Source: an uncultured Gammaproteobacteria bacterium (GTDB lineage Bacteria > Patescibacteriota > Patescibacteriia > Magasanikbacterales > GWA2-37-8). Taken from it: a DNA stretch of 63,385 bases. The stretch is from assembly GCA_964570525.1 (NCBI GenBank), contig CAZMYO010000062.1, positions 1-63,385 on the forward strand, given 5' to 3'. This document shows positions 509 through 50,204 of this stretch, piece by piece. The number at the start of each line of letters is the position of its first letter. Positions within the stretch are counted from its first letter, which is position 1. The position numbers and the translations under genes are program-made. The notes under the pieces are model-generated. The model searched no databases. It worked only from the letters and a program-made list of their open reading frames with translations, and was not told the DNA's origin.

Positions 509-537
509 TTGACAAGAAGAGTGGCTTATGGTATATT
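509..537 (+). promoter_or_regulatory. sigma70-type promoter upstream of the high-GC ORF
   Basis: TTGACA (509-514), a 17-nt spacer, then TATATT (532-537). Confidence 0.5.
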
Positions 538-699
538 TAAACATTAATCTATTAGGCTAGAGTCACCAAAGAATACGATTTTAGGCTAACGAATGGCATT
601 CTTTAGTGAGAAGCTCTTACGTGGTACGCAATTTGCGAACACGGAGAAAGGGCTTCTATTCACTGAAAATTGCGCGCAAGCGCAAACTAGGAGGGTCCC

Positions 700-1881
700 A
701 TGTCCACTCCCGAGTCCGCTCTCGAGTCCGTTCCCGAGTCCGTTCCCGAGTCCGCTCCCGAGTCCGCCACCGTGGTCGTTCCTCCGCCGGAACAGGCGGT
801 GGAGGCGAAGGTGCGCTGCACCGCCGGCAACAAGAATCCGGAGGACCAGTGCCAGAACGAGGATGCCACGAACAAGATGTACATCCCCGGGTTCGATTTC
901 CTCTCGAAGAAGCTCGGCGGTCGCCCGATCGAGCTGATCGATCTGAAGGAGCTCGAGGGATTCGCGATCTGCGCCCACTGCCACCAGCTCGTGACGGAGG
1001 CAGCGCGGAAGAGCAACATGAAGATCGAGTACTACAACCTCTCCACCTGCGTGGAGAGGCAGAAGCAGCACCGCGACAGGCGCGCCGCCAAGACGGTCAT
1101 CGACGCGGCGCAGGCGAATCTGTCGGAGCAGCAGAAGCAGCTCTTCAAGGCCAAGGTCGACAAGTACCTGGCCACTCTCCGCAAGAACGCTTCGGCGGAC
1201 CTCCCCCCCCTCGACGCGCTTCCGGAAGTCATCAACTGCGTGTTCGAGAAGTGCGGCCACGCGTTCGCCGGCAAGGACAAGATGTACGTCCCCACCCTCA
1301 CCCGCCTCAACCAGGCGCTCGGCCGCGACGTGGTGGAGGGTGATCTGCCCAACTTCGCCCTGTGCTTCGAGCACGCCCACGCGCTCGAGAAGCGCGACGA
1401 AGAGATGCACCTCCTCGTGGCGTCCATCTGGATGATCGCAAAGAACCGTCCCAAGCGGGAGGCGGCCAAGCAGACCAAGGCCAGGGTCGACGACCTCCTC
1501 GCCGAGTTCGCCGAGCCCATCACCTGGGAGGACGGCCTGCCCGACGCCCCGGTGCCGTGCCGAGGGGAGGGTTGCCCGAACACCATTCCGGCCGGCAAGG
1601 GCAGCGTGTGCGACAGCTGCAAGCGCAAGTGCAAGACCGACGGTTGCAACAATCGCATCCCCAAGATTCACGAATACTGCTTGAAGTGCAAGCCGAAGAG
1701 CCCGCTCGGGAAGAGCCCGCTCGAGAACAAGACCCCCCAGAACTCCACCCTCGCGGATCGGGAGACGAAGCGCCACTGGCGCCAGGGGGAGACCTCCGTG
1801 AAGGGTCCCGTGAAGGGTCCCAGCAACGATCTCTGCCTCCACAACTTCAAGGGCAAGGGCAAGGGCAAGGGCAAGAAGTAG
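700..1881 (+). CDS. Hypothetical Cys/His-rich protein encoded by a high-GC foreign-looking gene (393 aa)
   Basis: AGGAGG lies 7 nt upstream of the ATG. Third codon positions are strongly G/C, which marks this frame as the coding one among six open frames. Features: N-terminal (P)ES(V/A) 12-nt tandem repeats, two related Cys/His modules, a C-terminal CxxC cluster and a KG-repeat tail. I recognise no family. Confidence 0.7.
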   Translation: MSTPESALESVPESVPESAPESATVVVPPPEQAVEAKVRCTAGNKNPEDQCQNEDATNKMYIPGFDFLSKKLGGRPIELIDLKELEGFAICAHCHQLVTEAARKSNMKIEYYNLSTCVERQKQHRDRRAAKTVIDAAQANLSEQQKQLFKAKVDKYLATLRKNASADLPPLDALPEVINCVFEKCGHAFAGKDKMYVPTLTRLNQALGRDVVEGDLPNFALCFEHAHALEKRDEEMHLLVASIWMIAKNRPKREAAKQTKARVDDLLAEFAEPITWEDGLPDAPVPCRGEGCPNTIPAGKGSVCDSCKRKCKTDGCNNRIPKIHEYCLKCKPKSPLGKSPLENKTPQNSTLADRETKRHWRQGETSVKGPVKGPSNDLCLHNFKGKGKGKGKK

Positions 1882-1956
1882 CCTTTTCCCAACACCACTA
1901 CATGACACGCTAACGCGTGTCGGCGATGCTCGAGCGCCTCATCTCGAGCAACAATC

Positions 1957-1990
1957 AAAGTTCCCGATACCCAATCGGGACTTTTGATTT
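1957..1990 (+). terminator. Rho-independent terminator after the high-GC ORF
   Basis: aaagttcccgat-accca-atcgggactttt stem-loop followed by ttgattttt. The stem belongs to the host CCCGA/TCGGG hairpin family. Confidence 0.5.
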
Positions 1991-4530: not shown

Positions 4531-5169
4531 TTGAATATGTTTGAGTACAGCTTTGTAGATTTAGACTCCACTATTTATGAGACGCACCGGCTGGCGCAAG
4601 CAATGCGGGAAACATTTTTAAATCATGGCGTTACCAAAGAAGATTTTGAGGTATCTTTAAAACGAGCGGTGCATGGCGAACAGGGTGATCACTACGACTA
4701 TACTTTCGAGAGCCAGGTGGCCAATTTGCGGGGTCTAGGGTATGCTTTATCCGATGCGGTTGTTGACGAACTTTATTCCCTATTTAATGTTGATTACCAA
4801 GCCGACGATGCCGAAAAATTTTTGAAATTTTTGAAAAAAACCAGCGAGAAAACGGTGTTACTAAGCGCCGGTAACAGCGGTTTTCAGAAACAAAAACTTT
4901 TTTCCTCTAAATTAAATAATTTTTTTGATGAGATCCACATTGTCCATGGCAATAAGCATGAATTGGTAAGGCAAAGGAGCGGAGATGGGCACAGCCTGTT
5001 TGTTAACGATAGTCTTAAAGAAAATTCTATTATCAGCAAAATGTTTCCTAATATCTTGGTGGTTTCCCGGGTTAATCCACGAAAAGACATTATGGAATAT
5101 AAGCAAAGCGGCTTGCCTTATTTTAAAACATTAATCGAAATAGCTGATTATGTCTCGAAAGTACGGTAA
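4531..5169 (+). CDS. HAD-superfamily hydrolase (putative)
   Basis: VDLDST is DxDxT motif I, LLSAGN is motif II, and GNK...VNDS is motif III/IV-like. The start is either TTG 4531 or ATG 4537. Confidence 0.55.
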   Translation: MNMFEYSFVDLDSTIYETHRLAQAMRETFLNHGVTKEDFEVSLKRAVHGEQGDHYDYTFESQVANLRGLGYALSDAVVDELYSLFNVDYQADDAEKFLKFLKKTSEKTVLLSAGNSGFQKQKLFSSKLNNFFDEIHIVHGNKHELVRQRSGDGHSLFVNDSLKENSIISKMFPNILVVSRVNPRKDIMEYKQSGLPYFKTLIEIADYVSKVR

Positions 5170-5902
5170 TCTTGGGGTTGTAATTCTTGCTGCCGGCAAA
5201 GGAACGCGCCTGGGATGTACCGACACACCCAAGGCGATGCTTAAGATTGGCGGCCGTCCGATTGTTAGTTATATCGTGAAGACACTGGAAAAAATGGGTT
5301 TTAGGCCGGAGCAGATTTGTTTGGTGGTGGGGTTTAAAAAAGACAAAGTCAGGGAATATTTTGGCGAGCGCGTAAGTTACGCGGCGCAAGAGGATCTTTT
5401 GGGAACCGCGCACGCGGCGTATCTCGGCATGTTGTCTCTTCCAAAAGAAATTACTCAAGTACTGGTAATGGGAGGCGACGACAGCGCTTTTTATCGGCCG
5501 GTTTCTCTCTTTAATTTGCTTCAAGAACACGCGAGGCAGGCTGCCACACTCACCCTTCTTACAGTGGAGGCAGATATTCCAAATCAGCTCGGCAGAGTTG
5601 TTCGTCATGCTGATGGCAGCGTTGAAATAATAGAAAAGGAATATTTAACCGAGGAACAAAAATTAATTAAAGAAATTAGCACCGGCACTTTTGTTTTTGA
5701 CCGGCAGTGGTTCGAGAAAATGTTTCCAACCATGCCAAAGCTCCGCAAGCTCGGTGAATTTGGTCTCCCCACCGCCTTGGCTATGGCCAGGAAAGAAAAC
5801 GCGCCGTATCAGCTTATAAAGTTGTCCAATTCTGATGAGTGGTTTGGGGTGAACACTCCCGAGGAATTGGCGGAAGCGGAGCGGAGAAAAAAAGGTGGTT
5901 AA
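5150..5902 (+). CDS. Sugar-1-phosphate nucleotidyltransferase (GlmU N-terminal-domain-like)
   Basis: The VILAAGKGTRL signature plus the GTAHA motif. It lies next to glmS. Confidence 0.75.
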   Translation: MSRKYGNLGVVILAAGKGTRLGCTDTPKAMLKIGGRPIVSYIVKTLEKMGFRPEQICLVVGFKKDKVREYFGERVSYAAQEDLLGTAHAAYLGMLSLPKEITQVLVMGGDDSAFYRPVSLFNLLQEHARQAATLTLLTVEADIPNQLGRVVRHADGSVEIIEKEYLTEEQKLIKEISTGTFVFDRQWFEKMFPTMPKLRKLGEFGLPTALAMARKENAPYQLIKLSNSDEWFGVNTPEELAEAERRKKGG

Positions 5903-5917
5903 GCAAAGTCGCGAATT

Positions 5918-5960
5918 CAGAATCTTTAATCTTACAGTCTTTCAATCTTTAGTCTTTCAC
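5918..5960. repeat. Direct word-repeat spacer (aatcttta / gtctttca words) abutting the glmS start
   Basis: cagaatctttaatcttacagtctttcaatctttagtctttcac lies directly before ATG-5964. Confidence 0.5.
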
Positions 5961-5963
5961 CGT

Positions 5964-7787
5964 ATGTGCGGCATTATCGGTTACATCGGTCAAAAAGAAG
6001 CGTTACCGATCCTCATTAAGGGGCTGCGGCGTTTGGAATACCGCGGTTATGATTCCGCCGGTGTGGCGGTGTTTCATGAAGGAAAAGTGCGGCGCCGGCG
6101 CGCGGTGGGCAAGATTGATATGCTGGCCGAAAAGCTTAAAAAAGAATCGTTTCCGGGTACGGTTGGTATCGGCCATACACGCTGGGCCACGCACGGCGGC
6201 GTAACGGAGGAAAACGCGCATCCGCACACCGATTGCACCGGTAACATTATTGTGGCGCATAACGGCATTATTGAGAACTATCGCGAGCTAAAAAACAATT
6301 TTTTAACCGGGCATGCGTTCCATTCCGAGACCGATACGGAAATTCTGGCCCATCTCATCGAATTTTTTTATCGGGGAGATTTGCGTTTGGCGGTGGAGCG
6401 GGCGCTTAAAGAAGTGCGCGGAACCTATGGTTTGGTTGCGATGCATCTACAGGAACCGCGCAAGCTTATCGCGGCCAGACTCGGGAGCCCCCTAGTAGTC
6501 GGTGTCGGTGACAAAGAGTATTACCTGGCTTCCGACGCTTCTCCAATTTTGGCGTATACGCAGCAGGTTATTTTTTTAGATGATGGAGAAATAGTGGAGT
6601 TAACCGACCACAGTCTTCAAACCTTTAATCTTAAAGACGAAAAAATTAACAAATCCGCCGAGTTTATTGACTGGAATGAGAGTCAGGCAGAAAAGAACGG
6701 CTTCCCCCATTTCATGCTCAAAGAAATTTTTGATCAGCCCACCGTAATTAAAGACGCCATGCGCGGCCGGCTGGTGGAAGAAGACGGGGCGGCGCACTTG
6801 GGTGGACTTAACATGACGGAGCCCGAGATGCGCCGAGTGCAGCGGATTATTTTACTTGCTTGCGGGACTGCCTCGTACGCGGCACTGGTGGGCAAATATG
6901 CTTTTGAACGGCTGGCCGGTATTCCGACCGAGGTGGATGTGGCGAGCGAGTTCCGTTATCGTGACCCGATTATTGATAGCAATACTTTGGTATTTGGTGT
7001 TTCCCAATCGGGAGAAACAGCCGACACCTTGGCGGCTCTGCGCGAAGCCAAACGCAAAGGCGCCTTTGTGCGCGGCATCGTGAATGTGATCGGCTCCACC
7101 ATCGCGCGTGAAACCGACGGCGGCACCTATATTCACGCCGGGCCGGAGCTCGCGGTGGCTTCTTCCAAAGCGTATACCAATATGGTGGCGGTTTTGACAA
7201 TGTATGCTCTCCAGTTCGGCCGGAGTAGCAGGCTTACCGTTGCTACCGGCCAGCGCCTGGTTCGCGCGCTCAACGAGATTCCGGAAAAGATGAAAGTTGT
7301 TTTAACAGAAAGCGATAGGATTAAAAATATTGTTGAGAAACACAAAACTGCCACCAACTTTCTTTTTTTGGGACGCGGCATCAACTACCCGGTAGCTCTC
7401 GAAGGATCGCATAAGCTCAAAGAAATTTCCTATATCCACAGCGAAGCTTATCCGGCCGGCGAGATGAAACACGGAGCTAATGCCCTGCTCTCGCCGCAGT
7501 TTCCGGTTTTAGCCATCATGACCAAGAATCAACTATATGAAAAAATGCGCAGCAATGTTGAAGAGGTTCGAGCTCGCCACGCCCCGCTTATCCTCATCGC
7601 GACGGAGGGCGACACACAGGCCAAAGAGCTCGCCGATGATATTATTTTTGTGCCGCCGACCATGGAATTATTGGAGCCACTCATCAACACGATCCCACTT
7701 CAGCTGTTCGCCTACCATATGGCGGTAGCGCTGGGGAAAGATGTTGACCGGCCGAGAAACTTGGCTAAGAGTGTGACGGTTGAATAA
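5964..7787 (+). CDS. glmS: Glutamine--fructose-6-phosphate aminotransferase
   Basis: MCGIIGY provides the N-terminal nucleophile Cys2. Two SIS domains are present and the C-terminus is KSVTVE. The ORF-track start at 5895 would bury the catalytic Cys. Confidence 0.95.
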   Translation: MCGIIGYIGQKEALPILIKGLRRLEYRGYDSAGVAVFHEGKVRRRRAVGKIDMLAEKLKKESFPGTVGIGHTRWATHGGVTEENAHPHTDCTGNIIVAHNGIIENYRELKNNFLTGHAFHSETDTEILAHLIEFFYRGDLRLAVERALKEVRGTYGLVAMHLQEPRKLIAARLGSPLVVGVGDKEYYLASDASPILAYTQQVIFLDDGEIVELTDHSLQTFNLKDEKINKSAEFIDWNESQAEKNGFPHFMLKEIFDQPTVIKDAMRGRLVEEDGAAHLGGLNMTEPEMRRVQRIILLACGTASYAALVGKYAFERLAGIPTEVDVASEFRYRDPIIDSNTLVFGVSQSGETADTLAALREAKRKGAFVRGIVNVIGSTIARETDGGTYIHAGPELAVASSKAYTNMVAVLTMYALQFGRSSRLTVATGQRLVRALNEIPEKMKVVLTESDRIKNIVEKHKTATNFLFLGRGINYPVALEGSHKLKEISYIHSEAYPAGEMKHGANALLSPQFPVLAIMTKNQLYEKMRSNVEEVRARHAPLILIATEGDTQAKELADDIIFVPPTMELLEPLINTIPLQLFAYHMAVALGKDVDRPRNLAKSVTVE

Positions 7788-9094: not shown

Positions 9095-10303
9095 ATGAAT
9101 CTTTACGAATTTGAGGGAAAAAATTTATTTGCGAAGCATGGGATTACTATTCCGAAAGGCGTGGTAGTTCGTCGTGGGGATGACTTTAGAATTAAGTATC
9201 AAGAATTAGGAGTTAAAGATGTTGTCGTTAAAGCGCAAGTATTATCGGGTAAACGCGGGAAGAATAATGGGATTAGATTTTGTTCAAGTGTTGAAGAGGC
9301 GCAAACAGCTTGTGAGGAGTTGTTTGCGATGAACATTCAGGGGCAATACGTTGCCGCAGTGTTGATTGAGGAGAAATTTGATATTGCCGAGGAACATTAT
9401 TTGTCTATTACCTATGATACCAACAAAAAACAGCCGATGTTGATTTATAGTCGGCGAGGTGGAATGGATATTGAGGACGTGCCGGAGGGCGGTATTGAGA
9501 AGATGTGGTTGGATGTACGAGGGGAAACGTTGGCAGGGTTCGGCGCTCTCGGCAGTGGCCAGTTATCCCCCTCTTACCAAGAGGGGGCTCGGGGGGAGTT
9601 GCCGTTGTTGGCTCAATCCCTATGGAGTTGTTTTTTGGCAGAAGATACTCGTCTCGTCGAAATTAATCCTCTCATCAAGACTACAGATGGCCGGTGGGTA
9701 GCGGCCGACGCCAAGGTTGCGCTCGACGACGACGCCTTTTATCGCCATGAAGAATGGAAAGAGTTGGAACCACGGACGATGCTGGGACGCCTGCCGACCG
9801 AGCGTGAACTTGCCGTGAAAAAAATTGATGAAGGCGAGGCGTATTATCGCGGTACGGCCGGAAAATATATTGAAATGGACGGGGACATCGCGATTTTATT
9901 CTCTGGCGGTGGAGCGAGTATTGCCAATATGGACGCGCTCATTAAAGCCGGTTGCCGGCCGGCAAACTATACGGAGTATTCCGGCAACCCGCCCCGAGAA
10001 AAAGTCGCGCAGTTGGCGAGAATTGTTTTGTCCAAGCCCGGGCTTAAAGGTCTGTGGGTTGCCGGCGGGGTGGCTAACTTTACTAACATCGCCGAAACTT
10101 TTAATGGCATTACGGATGCTTTAGATGAGATAAAACCAAATTATCCGATTGTGGTGCGCCGCGCCGGTCCCTTCGAAGAAGACGGCATGCGACTCATGCG
10201 CGAATGCGCCGAGCGTAATCATCTAAATATGAAATTATTCGGCAAAGAGACTTCAATGAGCGAAACGGCGAAAATTTTGGCGGAGATGGTAAATAAACAA
10301 TAA
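9095..10303 (+). CDS. Succinyl-CoA synthetase beta-subunit-like ATP-grasp protein (SucC / citryl-CoA synthetase large-subunit-like)
   Basis: The MNLYEFEGKNLFAKHGI N-terminus and the length match SucC. It contains a GC hairpin insert at 9564-9597. Confidence 0.8.
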   Translation: MNLYEFEGKNLFAKHGITIPKGVVVRRGDDFRIKYQELGVKDVVVKAQVLSGKRGKNNGIRFCSSVEEAQTACEELFAMNIQGQYVAAVLIEEKFDIAEEHYLSITYDTNKKQPMLIYSRRGGMDIEDVPEGGIEKMWLDVRGETLAGFGALGSGQLSPSYQEGARGELPLLAQSLWSCFLAEDTRLVEINPLIKTTDGRWVAADAKVALDDDAFYRHEEWKELEPRTMLGRLPTERELAVKKIDEGEAYYRGTAGKYIEMDGDIAILFSGGGASIANMDALIKAGCRPANYTEYSGNPPREKVAQLARIVLSKPGLKGLWVAGGVANFTNIAETFNGITDALDEIKPNYPIVVRRAGPFEEDGMRLMRECAERNHLNMKLFGKETSMSETAKILAEMVNKQ

Positions 10304-10305
10304 GT

Positions 10306-11277
10306 ATGTCCATTCTTATTACTAAAAATACCAAAGTTTTGGTTCAAGGCATTACCGGAAAAGAGGGCGCCAAGGCCACCAAAGCCATGCTCGAGTACCA
10401 CACGAACGTGGTTGCTGGCGTGACCCCGAACAAAGGCGGGCAAGAAGTTGAGGGTAAGCCAGTGTTCAATTCGGTGAGGGAGGCACTGGCTGCCATTGCG
10501 AGCGAAGCGAAGCAATCTCCCAGCTTAAGCACTCCTGATGACCAGGGGATTGCCACGTCGGTCGCTACGCCGCCTCCTCGCAATGACATTGTTTCAGCCA
10601 TCTACGTTCCCCCGTTCGCCGCCAAAGCCGCTATTCTCGAAGCGATTGAGAACAATATTCCTTTGATTAATATTATCGTGGAGCGTATCCCGATTAAAGA
10701 TACGGCGTATTGTTTGGCGGCGGCGCGCGAGAAAAATATCCGGATTATTGGGCCGAGTTCGCTCGGGCTCATCAGCCCCGGCGTCGGTCGCATTGGCGTG
10801 GTCGGTGGCCCCTTGGTCAACGAAATTTTTCAACCCGGGTCGATCGGCATTATTTCCCGCTCCGGTGGGATGACGAACGAGGTCTCGTGGCAAGTCCGTA
10901 AAGCCGGACTCGGCCAGAGTAGCGCAGTGCACGTGGGCGGGGACCTCCTTATGGGCACAACCTATGGCGATCTGCTACAATTGTTTGAGGGGGACCCGCA
11001 AACCAAGGCGGTGGTGATTTTCGGGGAACATGGCGGGAGTTATGAGTTTGAAATTGTGGAGCTCATTAAACAAAAGAAATTTACCAAGCCCTTGGCTATC
11101 TACATTGGTGGCAAATTCGCCAATCTGTTTCCCGAAGGGATGAATATTGGACATGCCGGGGCGATTGTGGCGCGGGGTCAGGGCGCGGCGGAGAAGGCCA
11201 AGGCCCTAAAATCGGTGGGAGCGCTTATCGCCAATAGCTACGAAGAATTGGCAGCGCTTGTTAAACCATATGCTTAA
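10306..11277 (+). CDS. Succinyl-CoA synthetase alpha-subunit-like protein (SucD / citryl-CoA synthetase small-subunit-like)
   Basis: VLVQGITGKEG forms the CoA-binding Rossmann motif. IGHAGAI is the phosphohistidine loop. It carries a ~31-aa in-frame insert encoded by a palindromic element. Confidence 0.8.
   Translation: MSILITKNTKVLVQGITGKEGAKATKAMLEYHTNVVAGVTPNKGGQEVEGKPVFNSVREALAAIASEAKQSPSLSTPDDQGIATSVATPPPRNDIVSAIYVPPFAAKAAILEAIENNIPLINIIVERIPIKDTAYCLAAAREKNIRIIGPSSLGLISPGVGRIGVVGGPLVNEIFQPGSIGIISRSGGMTNEVSWQVRKAGLGQSSAVHVGGDLLMGTTYGDLLQLFEGDPQTKAVVIFGEHGGSYEFEIVELIKQKKFTKPLAIYIGGKFANLFPEGMNIGHAGAIVARGQGAAEKAKALKSVGALIANSYEELAALVKPYA
10494..10587. mobile_element. MITE/REP-like palindromic element inserted in frame in the SucD-like CDS
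   Basis: The termini cattgcgagcgaagcg and cgcctcctcgcaatgac are inverted repeats. The core gcaatctcccagcttaagcactcc...ggggattgccacgtc matches a second copy at 22473-22576. Confidence 0.6.
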
Positions 11278-11282
11278 GCGTT

Positions 11283-12215
11283 ATGAAAATTATATCTAAA
11301 TTTCTCCACTTAGCAGTCCTTTTTTTCTTGGTAATTCCCCAAGGAGTTTTGGCGAAGGGCGCTGGTTTTGTGCCGGCCGGCGGTATTTGGTTTTCAACCG
11401 ATACATTTTTACCCAAAGAGACTGTCCGGGTCTATACAGTTATCGTTAATAATAATTATTTTTCCCTGGAAGCACAGGTGAATTTTTATGATAATGGCGA
11501 GTTGATTGACGCGGCGGAGATTCATGGATTACCAAAAGAGGCCGCCAAAGTAGTTAGAGTTTTTTGGCAGCCGACCGAGGGGCGGCACATAGTGTCGGCT
11601 CGGTTGCTTAAGGCGGTGGCCACGGATGAAAGCGGTAAGCGTACCGAGCTTTCTCTCGCCGATCTCACGAGCGTGCCGGGAATTCCGCTTATGGTGGTTG
11701 GAAGCAGCGCCTCCCCCCCACCTTTAATCACTGAAAGCACGGCCTTGGGAGCTACGACAGTCGCAATAAAGCGAGAAGGTGACAAATTTTTTATTACCGC
11801 CCTCGATAAGCGAGGGGTTGAAGGCGAGAAGATAGCAGGAAGTGGGGTCGCGAATACCGAAGAGGCTTCGGCTACAAGTTCTTCGGGGAACAATACCCAA
11901 GATTTTTTTAAGAAAAATCGGGAGGCACTTGATAAACTACGGGGCGTCGCGGCGGGAGTTACCGGAACAGCGAGTGCTGTGGGCCAGGCGTACGGTGAAT
12001 CCAAATCTTTTTTGGAAAAAGGTAAAGAGCTTTATGAGACCAGCCGTAAATTTACGGATAAACTACAGCCATTTTTCGACAAGGTTGTGTCCGGGTGGAT
12101 GGTAATTTCGGGTAATAATAACCCCAAACGGGTAGTATTGATTGTGGGAGGCAGCGTAGTGGCTTGGCTGGCGCTTCGCCGCTCGCGGCGCTCACGAAGA
12201 TATTTTGGACGTTAA
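11283..12215 (+). CDS. Hypothetical exported protein with a C-terminal membrane anchor
   Basis: N-terminal signal-like segment LAVLFFLVIPQGVLA. C-terminal hydrophobic helix followed by RRSRRSRR. Confidence 0.5.
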   Translation: MKIISKFLHLAVLFFLVIPQGVLAKGAGFVPAGGIWFSTDTFLPKETVRVYTVIVNNNYFSLEAQVNFYDNGELIDAAEIHGLPKEAAKVVRVFWQPTEGRHIVSARLLKAVATDESGKRTELSLADLTSVPGIPLMVVGSSASPPPLITESTALGATTVAIKREGDKFFITALDKRGVEGEKIAGSGVANTEEASATSSSGNNTQDFFKKNREALDKLRGVAAGVTGTASAVGQAYGESKSFLEKGKELYETSRKFTDKLQPFFDKVVSGWMVISGNNNPKRVVLIVGGSVVAWLALRRSRRSRRYFGR

Positions 12216-12232
12216 TTTTTTAAAATAATTTT

Positions 12233-12979
12233 ATGACTTGGAAAACGAGTATAAGCAAAATCACCGACAACAAGGAAATTGTTCGAGGGGTTGATCTACA
12301 AGAGCTTATAAAGAAAAGAGATTTTGTGGAAGTAATTTTTTTGTTGCTGAAAGGACGGTTGCCCACCGCCCAAGAAACAAAAATGCTGAACGCGCTCTTT
12401 ACCGCCTGTATCGATCACGGCATTGGCGCGCCAGCGGCGACTGTTGCCAGGATAGTTGCCTCAACGGGGAACAGCCTGCATACCGCGGTTGCCTCCGGGA
12501 TTTTGGCGATGGGAGAATTACACGGCGGCGCGATTGAAGGAGCGGCGAAATTTTTTCAGGAGAATGTTGATGTTGCAGAGACGCAAAATTTTGCGTCTCT
12601 GCAGAAATTTATCCAATCGTTAAAAGACAAAAAAATTCGCATCCCCGGGTACGGCCACAAGGTGTTAACCCACGATCACCGCGCCGACACCTTATTTGAA
12701 GTTGCTAAAGAAACAGATTTTTACGGCGAGCATTGCGCGTTTGCCGCAGCAGTTGGTGAAGCATTAAATAAAGTTTCCTCAAAAAAATTACCGCTTAATG
12801 TTGATGGCGCCATGGGGGCAATTGTTTCTGACATGGGGTTTGATTGGCGGCTCGCCAAAGGTTTTTTTGTTATCGGCCGTGTACCTGGCCTCGTGGCGCA
12901 GGTGTATGAGGAGATGATGAGCGGCGAAGGAGTCAGACGGGTAAGTGAGGCGGATATCGCGTATCTTGGAGATGAATAA
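12233..12979 (+). CDS. Short citrate-synthase-family protein (citryl-CoA-lyase-like)
   Basis: GYGHKVLTHDHRAD resembles the citrate synthase GYGHRV..DPRA signature. The ~248-aa size is like stand-alone Ccl. Confidence 0.7.
   Translation: MTWKTSISKITDNKEIVRGVDLQELIKKRDFVEVIFLLLKGRLPTAQETKMLNALFTACIDHGIGAPAATVARIVASTGNSLHTAVASGILAMGELHGGAIEGAAKFFQENVDVAETQNFASLQKFIQSLKDKKIRIPGYGHKVLTHDHRADTLFEVAKETDFYGEHCAFAAAVGEALNKVSSKKLPLNVDGAMGAIVSDMGFDWRLAKGFFVIGRVPGLVAQVYEEMMSGEGVRRVSEADIAYLGDE
12575..12602. repeat. REP palindrome (GAGACGC family) inside the CDS
   Basis: gcagagacgcaaaattttgcgtctctgc is translated as AETQNFASLQ. It is related to the REPs at 54243 and 54584. Confidence 0.6.
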
Positions 12980-14551: not shown

Positions 14552-15688
14552 ATGAATTCCCTTGAATACCATCGAAAATTGAAAGGAAAAATAGAAGTTA
14601 TTTCGCGGGCGAAAATTGCTACCCGCGAGGATTTGAGTTTGGCCTATACACCCGGTGTGGCCGAGGCTTGCCAGGCGATTATTAAAGATAAGGAAGAGGT
14701 GTACGCTCTCACCCGAAAAAATAATCTGGTTGCCGTCGTTACCGACGGCAGCGCCGTACTCGGGCTCGGTAACATCGGACCGGAAGCAAGTTTGCCGGTG
14801 ATGGAGGGCAAATGCGCGCTCTTTAAAGAGTTTGCCGATGTGGATGCGATACCGATTGCGCTTAAAACCCAGAATGTAGAGGAAATTATTCGGACGGTGG
14901 CTTTGATATCGCCTGCTTTTGGCGGTATTAATTTGGAAGATATTTCCGCGCCGCGCTGTTTTGAGATTGAAGCCAGATTGAGCGAGCTTTTGGACATACC
15001 GGTATTTCACGACGATCAACACGGCACGGCTATTGTGGTTATGGCCGGACTTTTGAACGCGCTTAAGGTTGTCGGTAAAAAATTGGCAGAAATAAAGATT
15101 GTTGTCAGTGGTGTCGGTGCGGCCGGGTCGGCAGTAAGTTTTTTGCTTTTGCACGCGGGCGCTCAAGATATTTTTTTAGTTGATTCAAAAGGAATAATTG
15201 TTGCTGGTCGAGACGGTCTGGATGGAAAAAAACAAGAATTAGCTGTTTTGACTAATAAAGAAAAAATAGTCGGCGGCCTCAAAGAGGCGGTACGGGGAGC
15301 GGATGTGTTTATTGGCGTGAGCAAGCCTGGAATTCTTACGTCGGAGATGGTCGCGACTATGAACCAGAAAGCGATTGTGTTTGCTATGGCCAACCCCATA
15401 CCAGAAATTATGCCCGAGGTAGCGGCAGCAGCCGGGGCCAGAGTGGTGGCTACCGGACGGAGCGATTTTCCCAATCAAGTAAATAATGTGCTGGCTTTCC
15501 CGGGAATATTTCGCGGATTGTTAGATGGGCGAATCAAGCATGTTACGATGGGGATGAAATTAGCGGCCGCTCAGGCACTGGCTCGGCTTGTCCCTTATCC
15601 AACCACAGAGATGATTTTACCAAGTCCGCTCGATAAAGAGGTGGGCAAGGTAATCGCCCGGGCGGTTAGGGCCGCGGCAGTATTTTGA
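14552..15688 (+). CDS. NAD(P)-dependent malic enzyme (short type)
   Basis: LSLAYTPGVAEAC, FHDDQHGTA and GVGAAG Rossmann motifs. Confidence 0.85.
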   Translation: MNSLEYHRKLKGKIEVISRAKIATREDLSLAYTPGVAEACQAIIKDKEEVYALTRKNNLVAVVTDGSAVLGLGNIGPEASLPVMEGKCALFKEFADVDAIPIALKTQNVEEIIRTVALISPAFGGINLEDISAPRCFEIEARLSELLDIPVFHDDQHGTAIVVMAGLLNALKVVGKKLAEIKIVVSGVGAAGSAVSFLLLHAGAQDIFLVDSKGIIVAGRDGLDGKKQELAVLTNKEKIVGGLKEAVRGADVFIGVSKPGILTSEMVATMNQKAIVFAMANPIPEIMPEVAAAAGARVVATGRSDFPNQVNNVLAFPGIFRGLLDGRIKHVTMGMKLAAAQALARLVPYPTTEMILPSPLDKEVGKVIARAVRAAAVF

Positions 15689-47495: not shown

Positions 47496-48836
47496 TTAGA
47501 GCTTGCGAATACGGAGCCAAATCGGCTCGGTCGGCTTGCGCGTAAAGCCAATCTGCGGAGTAGGGCTAAAGTGGCGATCAGCGAGTTCAAACCGGACACG
47601 CTTTGCTGTTTCGGCAACGAGGAGCGCCATCTCCGTCTCGGCAAATTCCTTGCCAATACAGATACGCGGCCCGCTGCCAAAAGGCATGTGCGCCAGTTTA
47701 TGCTTCACCGAACCATCTAGAAAACGCTCGGGGTTAAACTCCAGAGGCTTGTCCCACCACCGTTCGTCTGTTCCCAAAAGAAAGATGGGGATGAGAACGA
47801 TCGATCGTTTGGGGATACGGTAGCCATCCAAGGTGTCTTCTGCCACTACCTCCCTACCCATGAGCCACGCCGTTGGAAACAAACGCATCGTCTCCTTAAC
47901 CGTGGCGCTAATGAGGCGCATCTCCCGATAGCTTTTGCTCGCGCGCGCTTCCTTCCCCAGTCGCTCCATCCACTCCGGACGGCGCGCCAGTAAGTACCAA
48001 AGCCAGGTGAGCGCGATGCCAGTCGTTTCGTGTCCGGCCAGCATGAACGTCTTGATGTTGTCGAGCACCGCTTCGTCCGTCATCCCAGCCTGGAGGAGAG
48101 TAGAAATGAGATTTGGGCGTTGCTCTCCGTGGCCGAGCTTAACTTTCTCGGCGACGATAAGCCGACGGCTAACAGTATTAAGCGTTCGTTTGGCGGCCGC
48201 CAAACTGCGGTTGGCCGAGGTCGGCAACCAACGCAAGGTGAAGGGGTCGTGCATTCCCGGAAAAATGGCCTCGAGTCCACGATCGGTGGCTTCACCAATC
48301 TGTTTGAGCTCGTCGCTAAAGTTAACACCTAAAATGCATTCCCCGAGTATTTGGAGCGTGAATCGCTCCATCGCCTCGCTCATGTTGAGGTTTTCCCCGC
48401 GCTCGGCCAGCCGCTCCCATTCTGTTACCGTAGCGTTGACGCACCGCTTCATTATCACGGCCGTTTCCTGGAGGGAACTGCCCCGAAACTGGGGATTCAT
48501 TGTATCGCGCATGCTTTTCCAGGCCGGGCCGCGTGAAGTCAAGACTCCCCAGCCAACAAGCTCGGCCAGTCGCTTCATACCGAGGGCAATTGGCTGGTAC
48601 TTGTCGCGCTCGGGTTCTTTTACCAGAACCCGGTGTACGAGCTCCGGGTTAAGGAGCAGAAACGCCGGTGTAAACAGGTTAAAGGCCACCAAATTGGCCG
48701 TGCGGCCAAAGCTCGATGCCAGCTCTCGAAGGTATCCTTCCGGATCATTGCGAAAACGGAAAAAACCCATCATTTTAGCCAACCCCCGCGGGCCCGGCGC
48801 GACATTTTTCTTATTTCCAAGACTTGGGTGATTCAT
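47496..48836 (-). CDS. Cytochrome P450
   Basis: FGSGPRICIG is the heme Cys loop, AGHETTG is the I-helix motif, and ETMRLFP is ExxR. aaggag lies 7 nt before ATG-48836. GC is elevated (36/60 in 47581-47640). Confidence 0.85.
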   Translation of the reverse strand: MNHPSLGNKKNVAPGPRGLAKMMGFFRFRNDPEGYLRELASSFGRTANLVAFNLFTPAFLLLNPELVHRVLVKEPERDKYQPIALGMKRLAELVGWGVLTSRGPAWKSMRDTMNPQFRGSSLQETAVIMKRCVNATVTEWERLAERGENLNMSEAMERFTLQILGECILGVNFSDELKQIGEATDRGLEAIFPGMHDPFTLRWLPTSANRSLAAAKRTLNTVSRRLIVAEKVKLGHGEQRPNLISTLLQAGMTDEAVLDNIKTFMLAGHETTGIALTWLWYLLARRPEWMERLGKEARASKSYREMRLISATVKETMRLFPTAWLMGREVVAEDTLDGYRIPKRSIVLIPIFLLGTDERWWDKPLEFNPERFLDGSVKHKLAHMPFGSGPRICIGKEFAETEMALLVAETAKRVRFELADRHFSPTPQIGFTRKPTEPIWLRIRKL

Positions 48837-49314
48837 TGGCCGCTCCTTTTTTTGAGAAAACCTTTTCCTCGCAGCCAACTATACACTATAATCCTTAAAA
48901 TTAGCAACTGTTAGAACTAAAATCCTACCACGCCATTCACTATATTTTTTCTTCAAACTTTGGATATGTTTACTCTCGCCACAACCAATACTCCCATATC
49001 ACCTGCTCATGTATTTTTGTGGTATTGCCATGACTTAGTAGTCCAAGATATGATTGAAAACTCTCCTCACTCACTGATGATCTAATGTTCCGCATCATTT
49101 GCTGTTTTGTTTTACTATCCGACTTGAGTATGCCACAAAAATATAGATTCCCATATTTTCATCGCTCGTTCGGAAGTGAAAAAAATTTTTTCACTTCTCT
49201 CGCTCGCTTGAAAATGATTCGCCCGCCCCAGTTTCCCAGGGCGGGCGTTTTGTTGCGATGGCGAGCCGACCGCGTGCCGCCTAAAGCTTCAGCGGTGGCG
49301 CAAGGATCCAAGCG

Positions 49315-49350: not shown

Positions 49351-49944
49351 CTACTCGCTGACGAAGCCGACGAGGCAGTGCCGACCCCAGTCACCCTCGA
49401 CCGTGCGGCAGAACAGGTTGCGCCAGTCGGAGTAGGAGCGGCCGCTGAGGAAGAGCACGCTGCCCTGCTGCCGGGAGCCGAGCGCCACGATGGGGTTCTC
49501 GCGCTTCTCGCCGGGCAGCTTGATGGCGATGCCCATCGTGTGGCGAGTCTCGATCGTCTTGGGGCGACCGTTCGCCTTGCCCCACGCGCGGACCTCGTCG
49601 TCCCCCCACTCGCGGTCGAACCCGACCAGGTCGACCTTCGTCGGCTTGTCGAGCCCCACCCGCTCCTTGGCGAACTGGCGGATGAGATAGCCGAGATCGC
49701 GCTCGTTGTCGAACTTGCCGAGGCGGACGGCCTCGGCAAAGTCCGCCGCCGAGTAGGCCGGGACAATGATCGTCTTCACCACCCTGCCGACGAGCGGCGG
49801 CGGAGAGGCGGGCTGCTGGCGCACGATCTCCTCGACCGTGAGCTTGCGCTCGCCGCGGAACACCGCACGTGCGATCTCCGAACCACCCACGATATTGAGG
49901 AGTGCTTCGGTCTCGCCGAGGGTCCAGTTATTGTACTTTCCCAT
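49351..49944 (-). CDS. Hypothetical protein encoded by a very high-GC foreign-looking gene (197 aa)
   Basis: aaAGGAGacccg precedes the ATG (M42 of the ORF-track ORF). Codons are GC3-saturated (45/60 GC in 49561-49620). All six frames are open. I recognise no family. Confidence 0.65.
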   Translation of the reverse strand: MGKYNNWTLGETEALLNIVGGSEIARAVFRGERKLTVEEIVRQQPASPPPLVGRVVKTIIVPAYSAADFAEAVRLGKFDNERDLGYLIRQFAKERVGLDKPTKVDLVGFDREWGDDEVRAWGKANGRPKTIETRHTMGIAIKLPGEKRENPIVALGSRQQGSVLFLSGRSYSDWRNLFCRTVEGDWGRHCLVGFVSE

Positions 49945-50204
49945 CGGGTCTCCTTTCAGGCTGAAAGCCCAAAAAGCCTTTTGCCCCTGCCCGGGGCCCA
50001 GGTCTCTTGTCTCATGAGAAGAGCTTTTGTACCACTTGCAAACAAATGAAACTAAAGCTTTTCTCAATAATTTTGCTTGATTTATTGGCTAATTATACAA
50101 AGAGCTAACGAATTATAATAGCACAAAATAAGAGTTTTGTCGACCGTGTACAGTATCCCCGCACCAGAAGGGTACGGGGATTTCCAAATATTTAATACTT
50201 GTGT

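Follow-up and report, generated by a model that had tools for sequence, protein, structure and literature searches.

The stretch of DNA analysed here, the window, comprises positions 1-63,385 (forward strand) of contig CAZMYO010000062.1 of assembly GCA_964570525.1. Close to its start, between the end of an rRNA operon and the gene of an HD-domain protein (HD), it carries a single G+C-rich open reading frame (ORF) of 393 codons, the main ORF, which encodes a Cys-rich protein. The relatives of the adjacent HD protein place the host among Patescibacteria of the Magasanikbacteria type. All features of the locus lie on the plus strand. The rRNA operon end (1-442) includes the 3′ end of the 23S rRNA at 1-185 (Rfam LSU, 140.6 bits) and the 5S rRNA at 336-442 (76.9 bits). 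The rRNA operon terminator hairpin, a terminator-like site in our scan, lies at 439-452, and the element 'caatggtc ttttt' 3′ of the 5S is also found in sister genomes. A sigma-70-type promoter, TTGACA-17-TATATT, follows at 509-537 (11/12 matches, with a TG extension), and other members of the gene family have a TTGACA box about 150-290 nt 5′ of the start codon. A leader of about 160 nt (538-699) with a host-like G+C content of 0.42 contains the Shine-Dalgarno (SD) sequence AGGAGG at 689-694. The main ORF occupies 700-1881, and its 3′ untranslated region (UTR; 1904-1990) contains hairpin A (1904-1921) and hairpin B (TGCTCGAG/CTCGAGCA, 1927-1950), both read from the sequence, and then an intrinsic terminator found by the terminator scan, with a CCCGA/TCGGG stem at 1962-1980 and a T tract to 1990. 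A preliminary description of this DNA had listed the promoter, leader, ORF and terminator, all of which we recovered; the SD sequence was also found, with a spacing to ATG-700 of five bases instead of the 7 nt given there. The main ORF is thus a genuine self-contained single-gene transcription unit with promoter, leader, SD sequence, coding sequence (CDS), two 3′ hairpins and terminator.

The terminator hairpin, CCCGA(N3-8)TCGGG, occurs eight times in the window (at 1963, 30781, 40562, 47424, 51413, 52334, 55741 and 61732) against 0.41 expected, and is therefore host-typical, as the preliminary description had proposed. Four of the eight copies read exactly CCCGACTTAGTCGGG. The hairpin looks like a lineage-specific repeat serving as a terminator. 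It is also present in the 5S-HD spacer of a sister locus, L002.

The order 23S-5S-HD is kept in seven related genomes, with 5S and HD 74-305 bp apart (L004, 793 bp), and in the sister genomes this spacer consists of the rRNA terminator and the HD promoter only. The preliminary description had suggested a search of sister genomes; tblastn found no homologue of the main protein at these seven loci. Because 5S and HD adjoin there, the window can be seen to carry a single-gene insertion of about 1.5 kb, from about 460 to about 2046, and the idea of a single-gene island after the rRNA operon holds. In the lineage of the window and L020, the cassette lies between the 5S rRNA terminator (about 460) and the HD promoter (about 2046). 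The window neighbours examined are ordinary cellular genes (HD-domain protein, aldolase, TrmB-type regulator and GlmS).

A chimeric assembly had been named as a possible explanation of the island. L020 is an independent metagenome contig whose HD protein is 84% identical to that of the window, and it spans the 3′ end of a homologue of the main ORF, immediately 5′ of HD, the 3′ UTR and the HD gene. Both 3′ hairpins and the terminator are present there as in the window and are largely identical. This repeated arrangement strongly argues against a chimeric right junction, and the orthologue 5′ of HD means that the insertion predates the split between the window and L020. In L034 the order is 23S-5S-homologue-rpsL-rpsG-fusA. 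This contig spans 5S, homologue and rpsL, and its rRNAs share 82-94% identity with Patescibacteria rRNAs; two lineages thus have the gene directly after the rRNA operon. In L024 the homologue also lies directly upstream of rpsL. The pairs L026/L027, L029/L030 and L024/L025, from separate sequencing runs, are 99.9-100% identical over their shared length, so that the junctions of these homologue loci recur. Neither flanking target duplications nor terminal repeats, inverted or otherwise, were found around the window cassette. The position after the rRNA operon may be an easy landing place beside a conserved recombination anchor, or the gene may sit there because of a functional tie to the translation apparatus.

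The composition of the main ORF departs sharply from that of its neighbours. Its G+C content is 0.643, with 0.60, 0.42 and 0.909 at the first, second and third codon positions (GC1, GC2 and GC3), and GC3 varies little from one quarter of the gene to the next (0.86-0.94). Mean GC3 for the remaining 54 window ORFs is 0.509 (standard deviation 0.063, maximum 0.642), which puts the main ORF at z = 6.3. It uses AAG in 42/42, CAG in 14/14, TTC in 10/10, TAC in 6/6 and CTC in 23/32 cases, whereas the other window genes use AAA at 71% and TTT at 76%. On the sense strand A is shunned at third positions more than T (0.02 vs 0.07). The earlier hand counts of G+C were reproduced (0.70 at 781-840, 0.58 at 1021-1080 and 0.47 at 2281-2340), and so was the near-exclusive use of G or C at third positions. 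The shift ends at the edges of the CDS, with 0.42 in the leader and 0.44 past the terminator against 0.64 within. GC1, GC2 and the Lys/Arg ratio (Lys 10.7%, Arg 5.1%) are those of an organism of about 50% G+C. GC1 and GC2 track genome G+C content, and the values of the main ORF do not fit the roughly 70% G+C organism implied by a GC3 of 0.91-0.97. The report that all six frames stay open was roughly correct, as there are long shadow ORFs on both strands, including an antisense one of 440 aa at 586-1908; this follows automatically from third positions almost without A. The main ORF itself is a genuine protein-coding gene, because its G+C content differs by codon position (0.60/0.42/0.91), its Cys ligands are invariant among relatives of 30-39% identity and an SD sequence precedes the start.

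The same excess is seen throughout the family. In all homologues with neighbours on the contig, GC3 is 0.2-0.6 above that of the neighbours, even in AT-rich contigs. GC3 is 0.91 in the window (neighbours 0.51), 0.83 in L020 (0.58), 0.71 in L021 (0.25-0.48), 0.61 in L022 (0.31-0.46), 0.57 in L023 (0.18-0.36), 0.71 in L026 (0.10-0.49), 0.95 in L024 (0.69, rpsL) and 0.97 in L034 (0.35-0.66). Relatives carry the gene, but never at host-like G+C content; an orthologue at such a content is what the preliminary description had named as evidence against a foreign composition. None of the relatives recovered matches the genes of its own genome, and none was seen in a GC-rich genome with which its composition was in equilibrium. 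The family leaders have a G+C content of 0.33-0.50 although they are co-inherited with the gene. In L034, rpsL, rpsG and fusA favour AAA (55:28), GAA (61:18), ATT and TTT; the homologue beside them lacks all four codons, and A is the last base in only 0.3% of its codons. We therefore rejected translational optimisation to the host, since the ribosomal-protein and EF-G genes favour the opposite codons and the bias of the homologue opposes those that the host prefers in translation. A literature search on GC-rich genes in these bacteria or in targets of diversity-generating retroelements (DGRs) found nothing on whole-gene GC3.

Substitution rates at synonymous (dS) and nonsynonymous (dN) sites were compared between L024 and L034, which are 91% identical overall. 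The homologue has a dS of 0.103, a dN of 0.048 and a dN/dS of 0.47, and the adjacent rpsL a dS of 0.254, a dN of 0.009 and a dN/dS of 0.037. The synonymous sites of the homologue thus change about 2.5 times more slowly than those of rpsL (synonymous differences in 21/330 vs 21/138 codons, p = 0.004), while its protein changes faster (34/374 vs 2/142 amino-acid differences, p = 0.0015); the 34 differences (P0004 vs P0034) are spread along the protein. In the comparison of the window with L020, HD is saturated, with 44/66 fourfold sites different, against 3/22 in the segment of the gene that can be aligned (p = 1.6e-5), a contrast to which a recently exchanged block may contribute; across this split GC3 is still 0.83-0.91. 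Slower synonymous change implies that some directional force holds the third positions. Amelioration is contradicted, because a GC3-saturated gene under host mutation should lose G and C faster than its neighbours change. The substitution comparisons show that selection or another directional force acts on the synonymous sites of the homologues. Selection for extra mRNA structure beyond composition was considered and set aside, as z values in a synonymous-permutation test were low and inconsistent, ranging from -1.2 to -3.0 (-2.5 and -3.0 in two homologues).

An exhaustive HMMER phmmer scan of 1.84 billion cluster representatives yielded six relatives of the main protein (E 1e-41 to 1e-15, 31-39% identity), all from tiny clusters of 1-3 members. 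With the syntenic orthologue in L020, the family has about eight members among about 15 billion proteins, and its hosts, where they can be judged, are Patescibacteria. Pattern scans of genome and viral collections found no relative, and that of metagenomes found only L020. A word-index protein search with the single sequence gave none, and its profile version gave two known members only, with candidates swamped by low-complexity words. Searches of Pfam, NCBIfam and PDB sequences gave no match for the main protein, and neither PDB nor BFVD holds a fold matching its AlphaFold model at E < 0.1. The structure prediction and fold search that the preliminary description had proposed thus agree with its view of an unassignable product, for which a PHROG profile gave only a weak match, and with its idea of an unrecognised protein family.

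The AlphaFold model has a pLDDT of 70 overall and of about 80-93 over most of residues 50-260. Together with the alignment it gives the domain order, which begins with an N-terminus that is disordered and built of repeats; a zinc module, a helix about 45 residues long, a copy of the module, a further long helix, two ribbons and a basic tail follow. The N-terminus is encoded by an in-frame 12-nt tandem repeat of 5.5 copies, (S/V)PES, at 702-767 (TRF score 104), and residues 1-34 have a pLDDT < 50. Module 1 (aa 40-94; 817-981), C-x10-C...MYIP...C-x2-C, is modelled at pLDDT 63-89, and C40, C51, P63 and C91 are invariant in 7/7 sequences. Module 2 (aa 180-225; 1237-1374), C-x4-C...MYVP...C-x2-H, is modelled at pLDDT 76-93, and C180, C185, V197, P198 and C222 are invariant in the seven-sequence alignment. 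It is an internal duplicate of module 1, and the DNA repeat 867-888/1272-1293 (86% identical, 405 nt apart) marks the copies. The family consensus for the long modules is C-x4..10-C...(F/Y)VP...C-x2-H/C. Two short tandem zinc ribbons (aa 287-330; 1558-1689), each C-x4-C-x11-C-x2-C, form the block best conserved with L020 (43/45 nt identical over one stretch), with C287, C292, P297 and C304 invariant in 8/8 sequences. The Lys/Gly-rich tail (1696-1878; residues 333-393 with pLDDT < 50) has in-frame repeats of 15, 12 and 6 nt (TRF) and is not homologous between the window and L020.

A few weak profile matches were found. PF12773 (DZR) matches 2/7 members (best E = 0.025, below threshold) and gives no match in the window protein. 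The PHROG match is to an HNH endonuclease, phrog_144 (E = 0.0025, aa 308-362 against profile positions 22-74 of 175), and covers the Cys-pair region only; one family member has a weak NinG match. No Pfam HNH or other nuclease domain was found in seven members. From the Cys patterns, the basic tail and the gene neighbourhood, we tentatively suggest that the product binds nucleic acid. Other family members occupy unrelated loci, next to a lipoprotein gene of divergent orientation. In L021, L022, L023, L026, L027 and L028 this gene, on the opposite strand 5′ of the homologue, encodes a conserved lipoprotein of about 165 aa with an LSGC lipobox and rich in Arg and Gly. Its G+C content is also raised (0.44-0.53), chiefly via GC1 and GC2. 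It is present neither in the window nor in L034, and it was rejected as a relative of ORF2, the second GC-rich ORF of the window, to which it is unrelated.

A shared leader follows the TTGACA promoter in all eight family loci with upstream sequence. In the window it contains helix P1 (604-662), in which 9 bp, AAGCUCUU/AAGGGCUU, with a conserved U-G pair enclose a variable hairpin, and a pre-SD hairpin, UUGCGC-GCAA-GCGCAA, at 670-685. Each member has a GC hairpin just 5′ of the SD sequence, and the sequences of these hairpins are unrelated. P1 is 98.6% paired in the eight sequences, with compensatory changes at three pairs, and 0/500 shuffles reached its covariation score; RNAalifold run on the family leaders also supports it. 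A covariance model, R1, matches the window at 604-662 (E = 2.5e-11) and found only the leaders of this family in 205 kb of related sequence. Folding z values of the leaders are -3 to -5.8 (-3.0 in the window). Rfam has no match to 538-699 at the gathering score, and a scan of 440-2100 at E <= 10 gave four chance-level matches only, antisense within the CDS (803-1402). The leader is thus part of the cassette, and most likely a cis-regulator. P1 and the hairpin 5′ of the SD sequence might control translation of the zinc-ribbon protein, and autoregulation by binding of the protein to its leader is a tentative possibility. Terminator-like hairpins with a U run lie 5′ of P1 in L034 (7330-7370, AAAACCUCUCUCUAUGAGAGGUUUUUGCG) and in the leaders of L022 (AAAAUAGGAC..GUCGUAUUUUUU), L023, L026 and L028, and the window leader has only a weak counterpart. 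Such hairpins in several leaders suggest possible transcription attenuation. In L022 (1006-1048) the arms of P1 are swapped (AAGCCCUU...AAGAGCUU), so that the sense strand has C-A in place of the U-G pair, and it is the antisense strand that carries the consensus.

The second ORF of the same codon style, noted in the preliminary description, is present on the minus strand at 49351-49944 (ORF2, 197 aa, GC3 0.909). The suggestion that the two belong to one gene class was not borne out. ORF2 has 25 homologues, the source-named one from Candidatus Uhrbacteria, and in three contexts the homologues have a GC3 of 0.87-0.91 against 0.36-0.73 in neighbours, at loci that differ. In L032, the last 121 nt of the homologue are repeated 360 bp downstream (87.6% identity), adjoining bAvd and a reverse transcriptase (RT; RVT_1) gene, and 14/15 mismatches fall at adenines of the downstream, template copy. 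Because the mismatches between this variable repeat (VR) and template repeat (TR) fall at template adenines beside Avd and RT, the ORF2 family is one of DGR variable proteins. The VR of ORF2, 49353-49480, aligns to the L032 template at 74%, the protein alignment has interleaved hypervariable C-terminal columns, and the ORF2 model (pLDDT 83) gives weak fold matches to C-type lectin domains.

DGR remains lie at 48973-49247 on the minus strand. They consist of a GC-rich 12-bp hairpin with a GAAA loop at 49247-49220, found by the terminator scan, and an RT remnant at 49110-48973 covering the last ~46 codons (tblastn, 52% identity over 46 aa, E = 1e-11), whose translation ends in QSYLGLLSHGNTTKIHEQVIWEYWLWRE*. 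The motif cggatagtaaaacaaaacag lies just 5′ of the RT fragment (within 48973-49131, minus strand) and, in L032 and L033, also 3′ of the respective ORF2 homologue. Searches of the window gave neither a template repeat nor an Avd gene, and ORF2 has no internal repeat copy there. ORF2 is, on sequence comparison, the orphaned variable protein of a decayed DGR. It has a promoter, TCGACA-17-TATTAT, found by scanning at 50143-50115, and a leader of about 170 nt within 49945-50143 (both minus strand; folding z -3.05), the last hairpin of which takes in part of the SD sequence. This leader is conserved in L029, L032 and L033, and the covariance model of the main ORF leader does not match it. A leader motif AGCTCT..ARRGCTT shared by the two ORFs (three hits against 0.37 expected, in the window only in these two leaders) was dropped, as that model misses ORF2-type leaders. 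The two ORFs are unrelated in sequence, leader and mode of variation, and share their codon style. The main ORF was rejected as a DGR target, because it has no repeat in the window, its differences are scattered and no RT or Avd was found in the family loci. To our knowledge, a whole-gene GC3 of about 0.9 is not a described feature of DGR targets. Directly 3′ of the decayed DGR, at 47496-48878 on the minus strand, lies a full-length cytochrome P450 gene (Pfam E = 5e-71) whose GC3 of 0.64 is the highest among the ordinary genes; such a gene seems to us unusual in Patescibacteria.

On balance, and by a modest margin over even, we favour the view that the main ORF is an autonomous gene, restricted to its lineage and controlled by its leader, which encodes a fast-evolving protein with several zinc ribbons and has its third positions actively held at G or C. 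In every member, third positions would be kept at G or C, with A nearly absent, against the mutational and translational preference of the host. The force would probably act on the mRNA or its decoding. One candidate is that messages lacking A- and U-ending codons would need no wobble-U tRNAs; another is that they would resist A/U-directed RNases. Selection at the level of the message and a nucleic-acid-binding role are what we infer, and favour, from about eight sequences, mostly on short contigs. Several points weigh against this interpretation. The family has only about eight members, most on contigs of 1-5 kb, and the hosts of L021-L028 are unclassified. The substitution tests come from one close pair and one short alignable segment, and apparent synonymous divergence would likewise be depressed if lineages had recently exchanged the 3′ part of the gene; extreme codon bias by itself lowers the level at which synonymous differences saturate. 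The signal of selection on mRNA structure is weak in the window gene itself (z -1.3), and the AlphaFold model, made from a seven-sequence alignment, reaches only moderate quality (pLDDT 70). A GC-rich reservoir, for instance in phages or plasmids of these bacteria, may also have escaped sampling.

A wider and rather speculative possibility, which we hold to be doubtful, is that some Patescibacteria write a few of their genes, all with strong promoters and under leader control, in a private codon dialect, of which the zinc-ribbon family and the DGR variable proteins would be examples. Almost all codons in this dialect would end in C or G, with A-ending ones near absent, opposite to those of ribosomal-protein genes, and would be held by selection. 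Such messages might be decoded without wobble-U tRNAs, or might survive A/U-directed RNases or anticodon nucleases, and the genes could still be expressed during an attack on, or a shutdown of, general translation. If this were true, the GC-rich look would be a regulatory or defence-related code and not a mark of foreign origin.

The preliminary description had raised recent acquisition from a high-GC donor, possibly a host organism, with the composition not yet ameliorated. Absence of the gene at the locus in seven sister genomes, a GC3 six standard deviations above the window mean, and a patchy distribution with varying genomic position are all as expected from such a transfer. However, among the 1.84 billion representatives no homologue was found in a GC-rich context, and all homologues with neighbours exceed them in GC3, even in AT-rich contigs. 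The shift begins with the start codon and ends with the stop codon, even though the leader is inherited together with the gene, and the Lys-rich amino-acid composition, like GC1 and GC2, is host-like. The gene is older than the split of the window and L020 lineages; over this divergence HD has become saturated at synonymous sites, but the gene has kept a GC3 of 0.83-0.91, and dS is below that of the neighbouring gene, not above. The donor explanation is strained and unlikely, and reading the gene as a recent import is probably wrong. GC-biased gene conversion would instead make the cassette a recombination hot spot, exchanged between strains with the rRNA and flanks as anchors, in which GC3 was driven up. 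This would fit the mosaic between the window and L020, where the 43/45-nt block and a similar 3′ UTR lie amid very divergent sequence, the position of the gene beside the conserved rRNA operon in two lineages, and the dN/dS of 0.47, which is compatible with frequent allele replacement. Conversion tracts should, however, ignore CDS edges and codon phase, whereas the leader and promoter are AT-rich and the effect falls mostly at third positions, and avoidance of A more than T on the sense strand (0.02 vs 0.07) is unexpected of a strand-symmetric process. Effects of biased gene conversion in bacteria known to us are far below +0.4 GC3. We consider conversion, too, to be improbable.

A selfish mobile gene, for example a homing-type HNH endonuclease targeting the region 3′ of rRNA operons, would account for the gene after 5S in two lineages and is hinted at by the weak phrog_144 match and the weak NinG match in one member. 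The phrog_144 match is limited to the Cys-pair ribbons, seven members are without a Pfam HNH or other nuclease domain, neither PDB nor BFVD gave a structural match, the cassette has no flanking target duplication or terminal repeats, and other members occupy unrelated loci beside the lipoprotein gene, which makes this origin very unlikely. An artefact, either a high-GC fragment wrongly joined to a Patescibacteria contig in assembly or an ORF arising by chance in a GC-rich non-coding RNA, could produce sharp G+C steps and fairly open frames in all phases. The independent contig L020 spans the gene 3′ end, the 3′ UTR and HD, L034 spans 5S, homologue and rpsL, other members are identical in separate sequencing runs, three-base periodicity is strong, and Cys ligands are conserved at 30% identity; we regard an artefact as hardly credible.

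Some features near the cassette and elsewhere were noted in passing. At 2002-2045 of the window (plus strand), just 5′ of the HD promoter, an inverted repeat, CCCCGTATA...TATACGGGG, is followed by a perfect tandem ATTATACGGGG x2, and this element is missing from L020. In L002, a group I intron (Rfam, 56.9 bits) lies in the 23S rRNA and the 5S-HD spacer has a duplicated 5S 3′ end (4763-5207 and 5722-6000). The 793-bp spacer of L004 (1371-2163) has an ordinary G+C content, is unrelated to the zinc-ribbon gene and may hold a reverse-strand ORF. Further along the window (9095-12979, plus strand) are genes with ATP-grasp/citrate-binding, CoA-ligase and citrate-synthase C-terminal domains, resembling ATP-citrate lyase, followed by a malic enzyme gene at 14552-15688, an unexpected metabolism for an organism with a reduced genome.

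Deviant GC3 is routinely taken for recent transfer, and genes of this kind would be wrongly called foreign DNA if judged by composition. Two unrelated families, those of the main ORF and ORF2, have a GC3 0.2-0.6 over that of their neighbours in all genomes examined. If selection on the message is responsible, this would be synonymous-site selection of unusual strength and clarity, acting against host-preferred codons, in organisms with tiny genomes. The main ORF also adds a new family of predicted zinc-binding proteins, with a conserved leader RNA, beside translation-apparatus genes of uncultivated bacteria, and ORF2 gains an annotation as the orphaned target of a decayed DGR.

The zinc modules resemble known ones in part. 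The C-terminal ribbon pair resembles the double zinc ribbon PF12773, with sub-threshold matches. The spacing of the long modules, C-x4-C-x36-39-C-x2-H, fits what we take to be the THAP (PF05485) C2CH signature, but seven members gave no Pfam hit to it even at E <= 10 and PDB gave no fold match. Membership in THAP is supported by neither profile nor fold, and the spacing fits by eye only. In its regulation, the gene is similar to those of ribosomal and RNA-binding proteins with autoregulatory leaders: a long conserved covarying leader helix and a hairpin beside the SD sequence are inherited with the gene, which itself neighbours the rRNA operon and is followed directly by rpsL in one lineage (L024, L034). 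The leader differs from these in matching no Rfam family. Likeness to DGR variable proteins is confined to ORF2, with the 14/15 adenine-specific VR/TR mismatches, Avd and RT of its homologue and the RT remnant of the window. The main ORF differs in having no repeat, scattered differences and no RT or Avd near any member. A survey of DGRs mentions GC-rich sequence only locally, in the regions flanking the VR (PMC5758913).

Phage morons, as reportedly described by Hendrix and colleagues, are single ORFs with their own promoter and terminator that lie between two genes and have a composition unlike that of their neighbours. The cassette is similar in that a promoter, one ORF and a factor-independent terminator lie between 5S and HD, with deviant composition. 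It is flanked by rRNA and cellular genes and not in a prophage, and neither a viral contig with a relative nor a BFVD fold match was found. The deviation of the cassette is confined to the CDS and repeated in all homologues, so that it appears to be maintained rather than foreign. In the model of Lawrence and Ochman, atypical transferred islets are said to ameliorate towards the composition of the host. The main gene resembles such islets in its absence at sister loci, atypical GC3 and patchy occurrence. Unlike them, it has no donor-like homologues, its GC1, GC2 and amino-acid usage are host-like, its synonymous sites change more slowly than those of its neighbour, and its GC3 is kept across saturated divergence.

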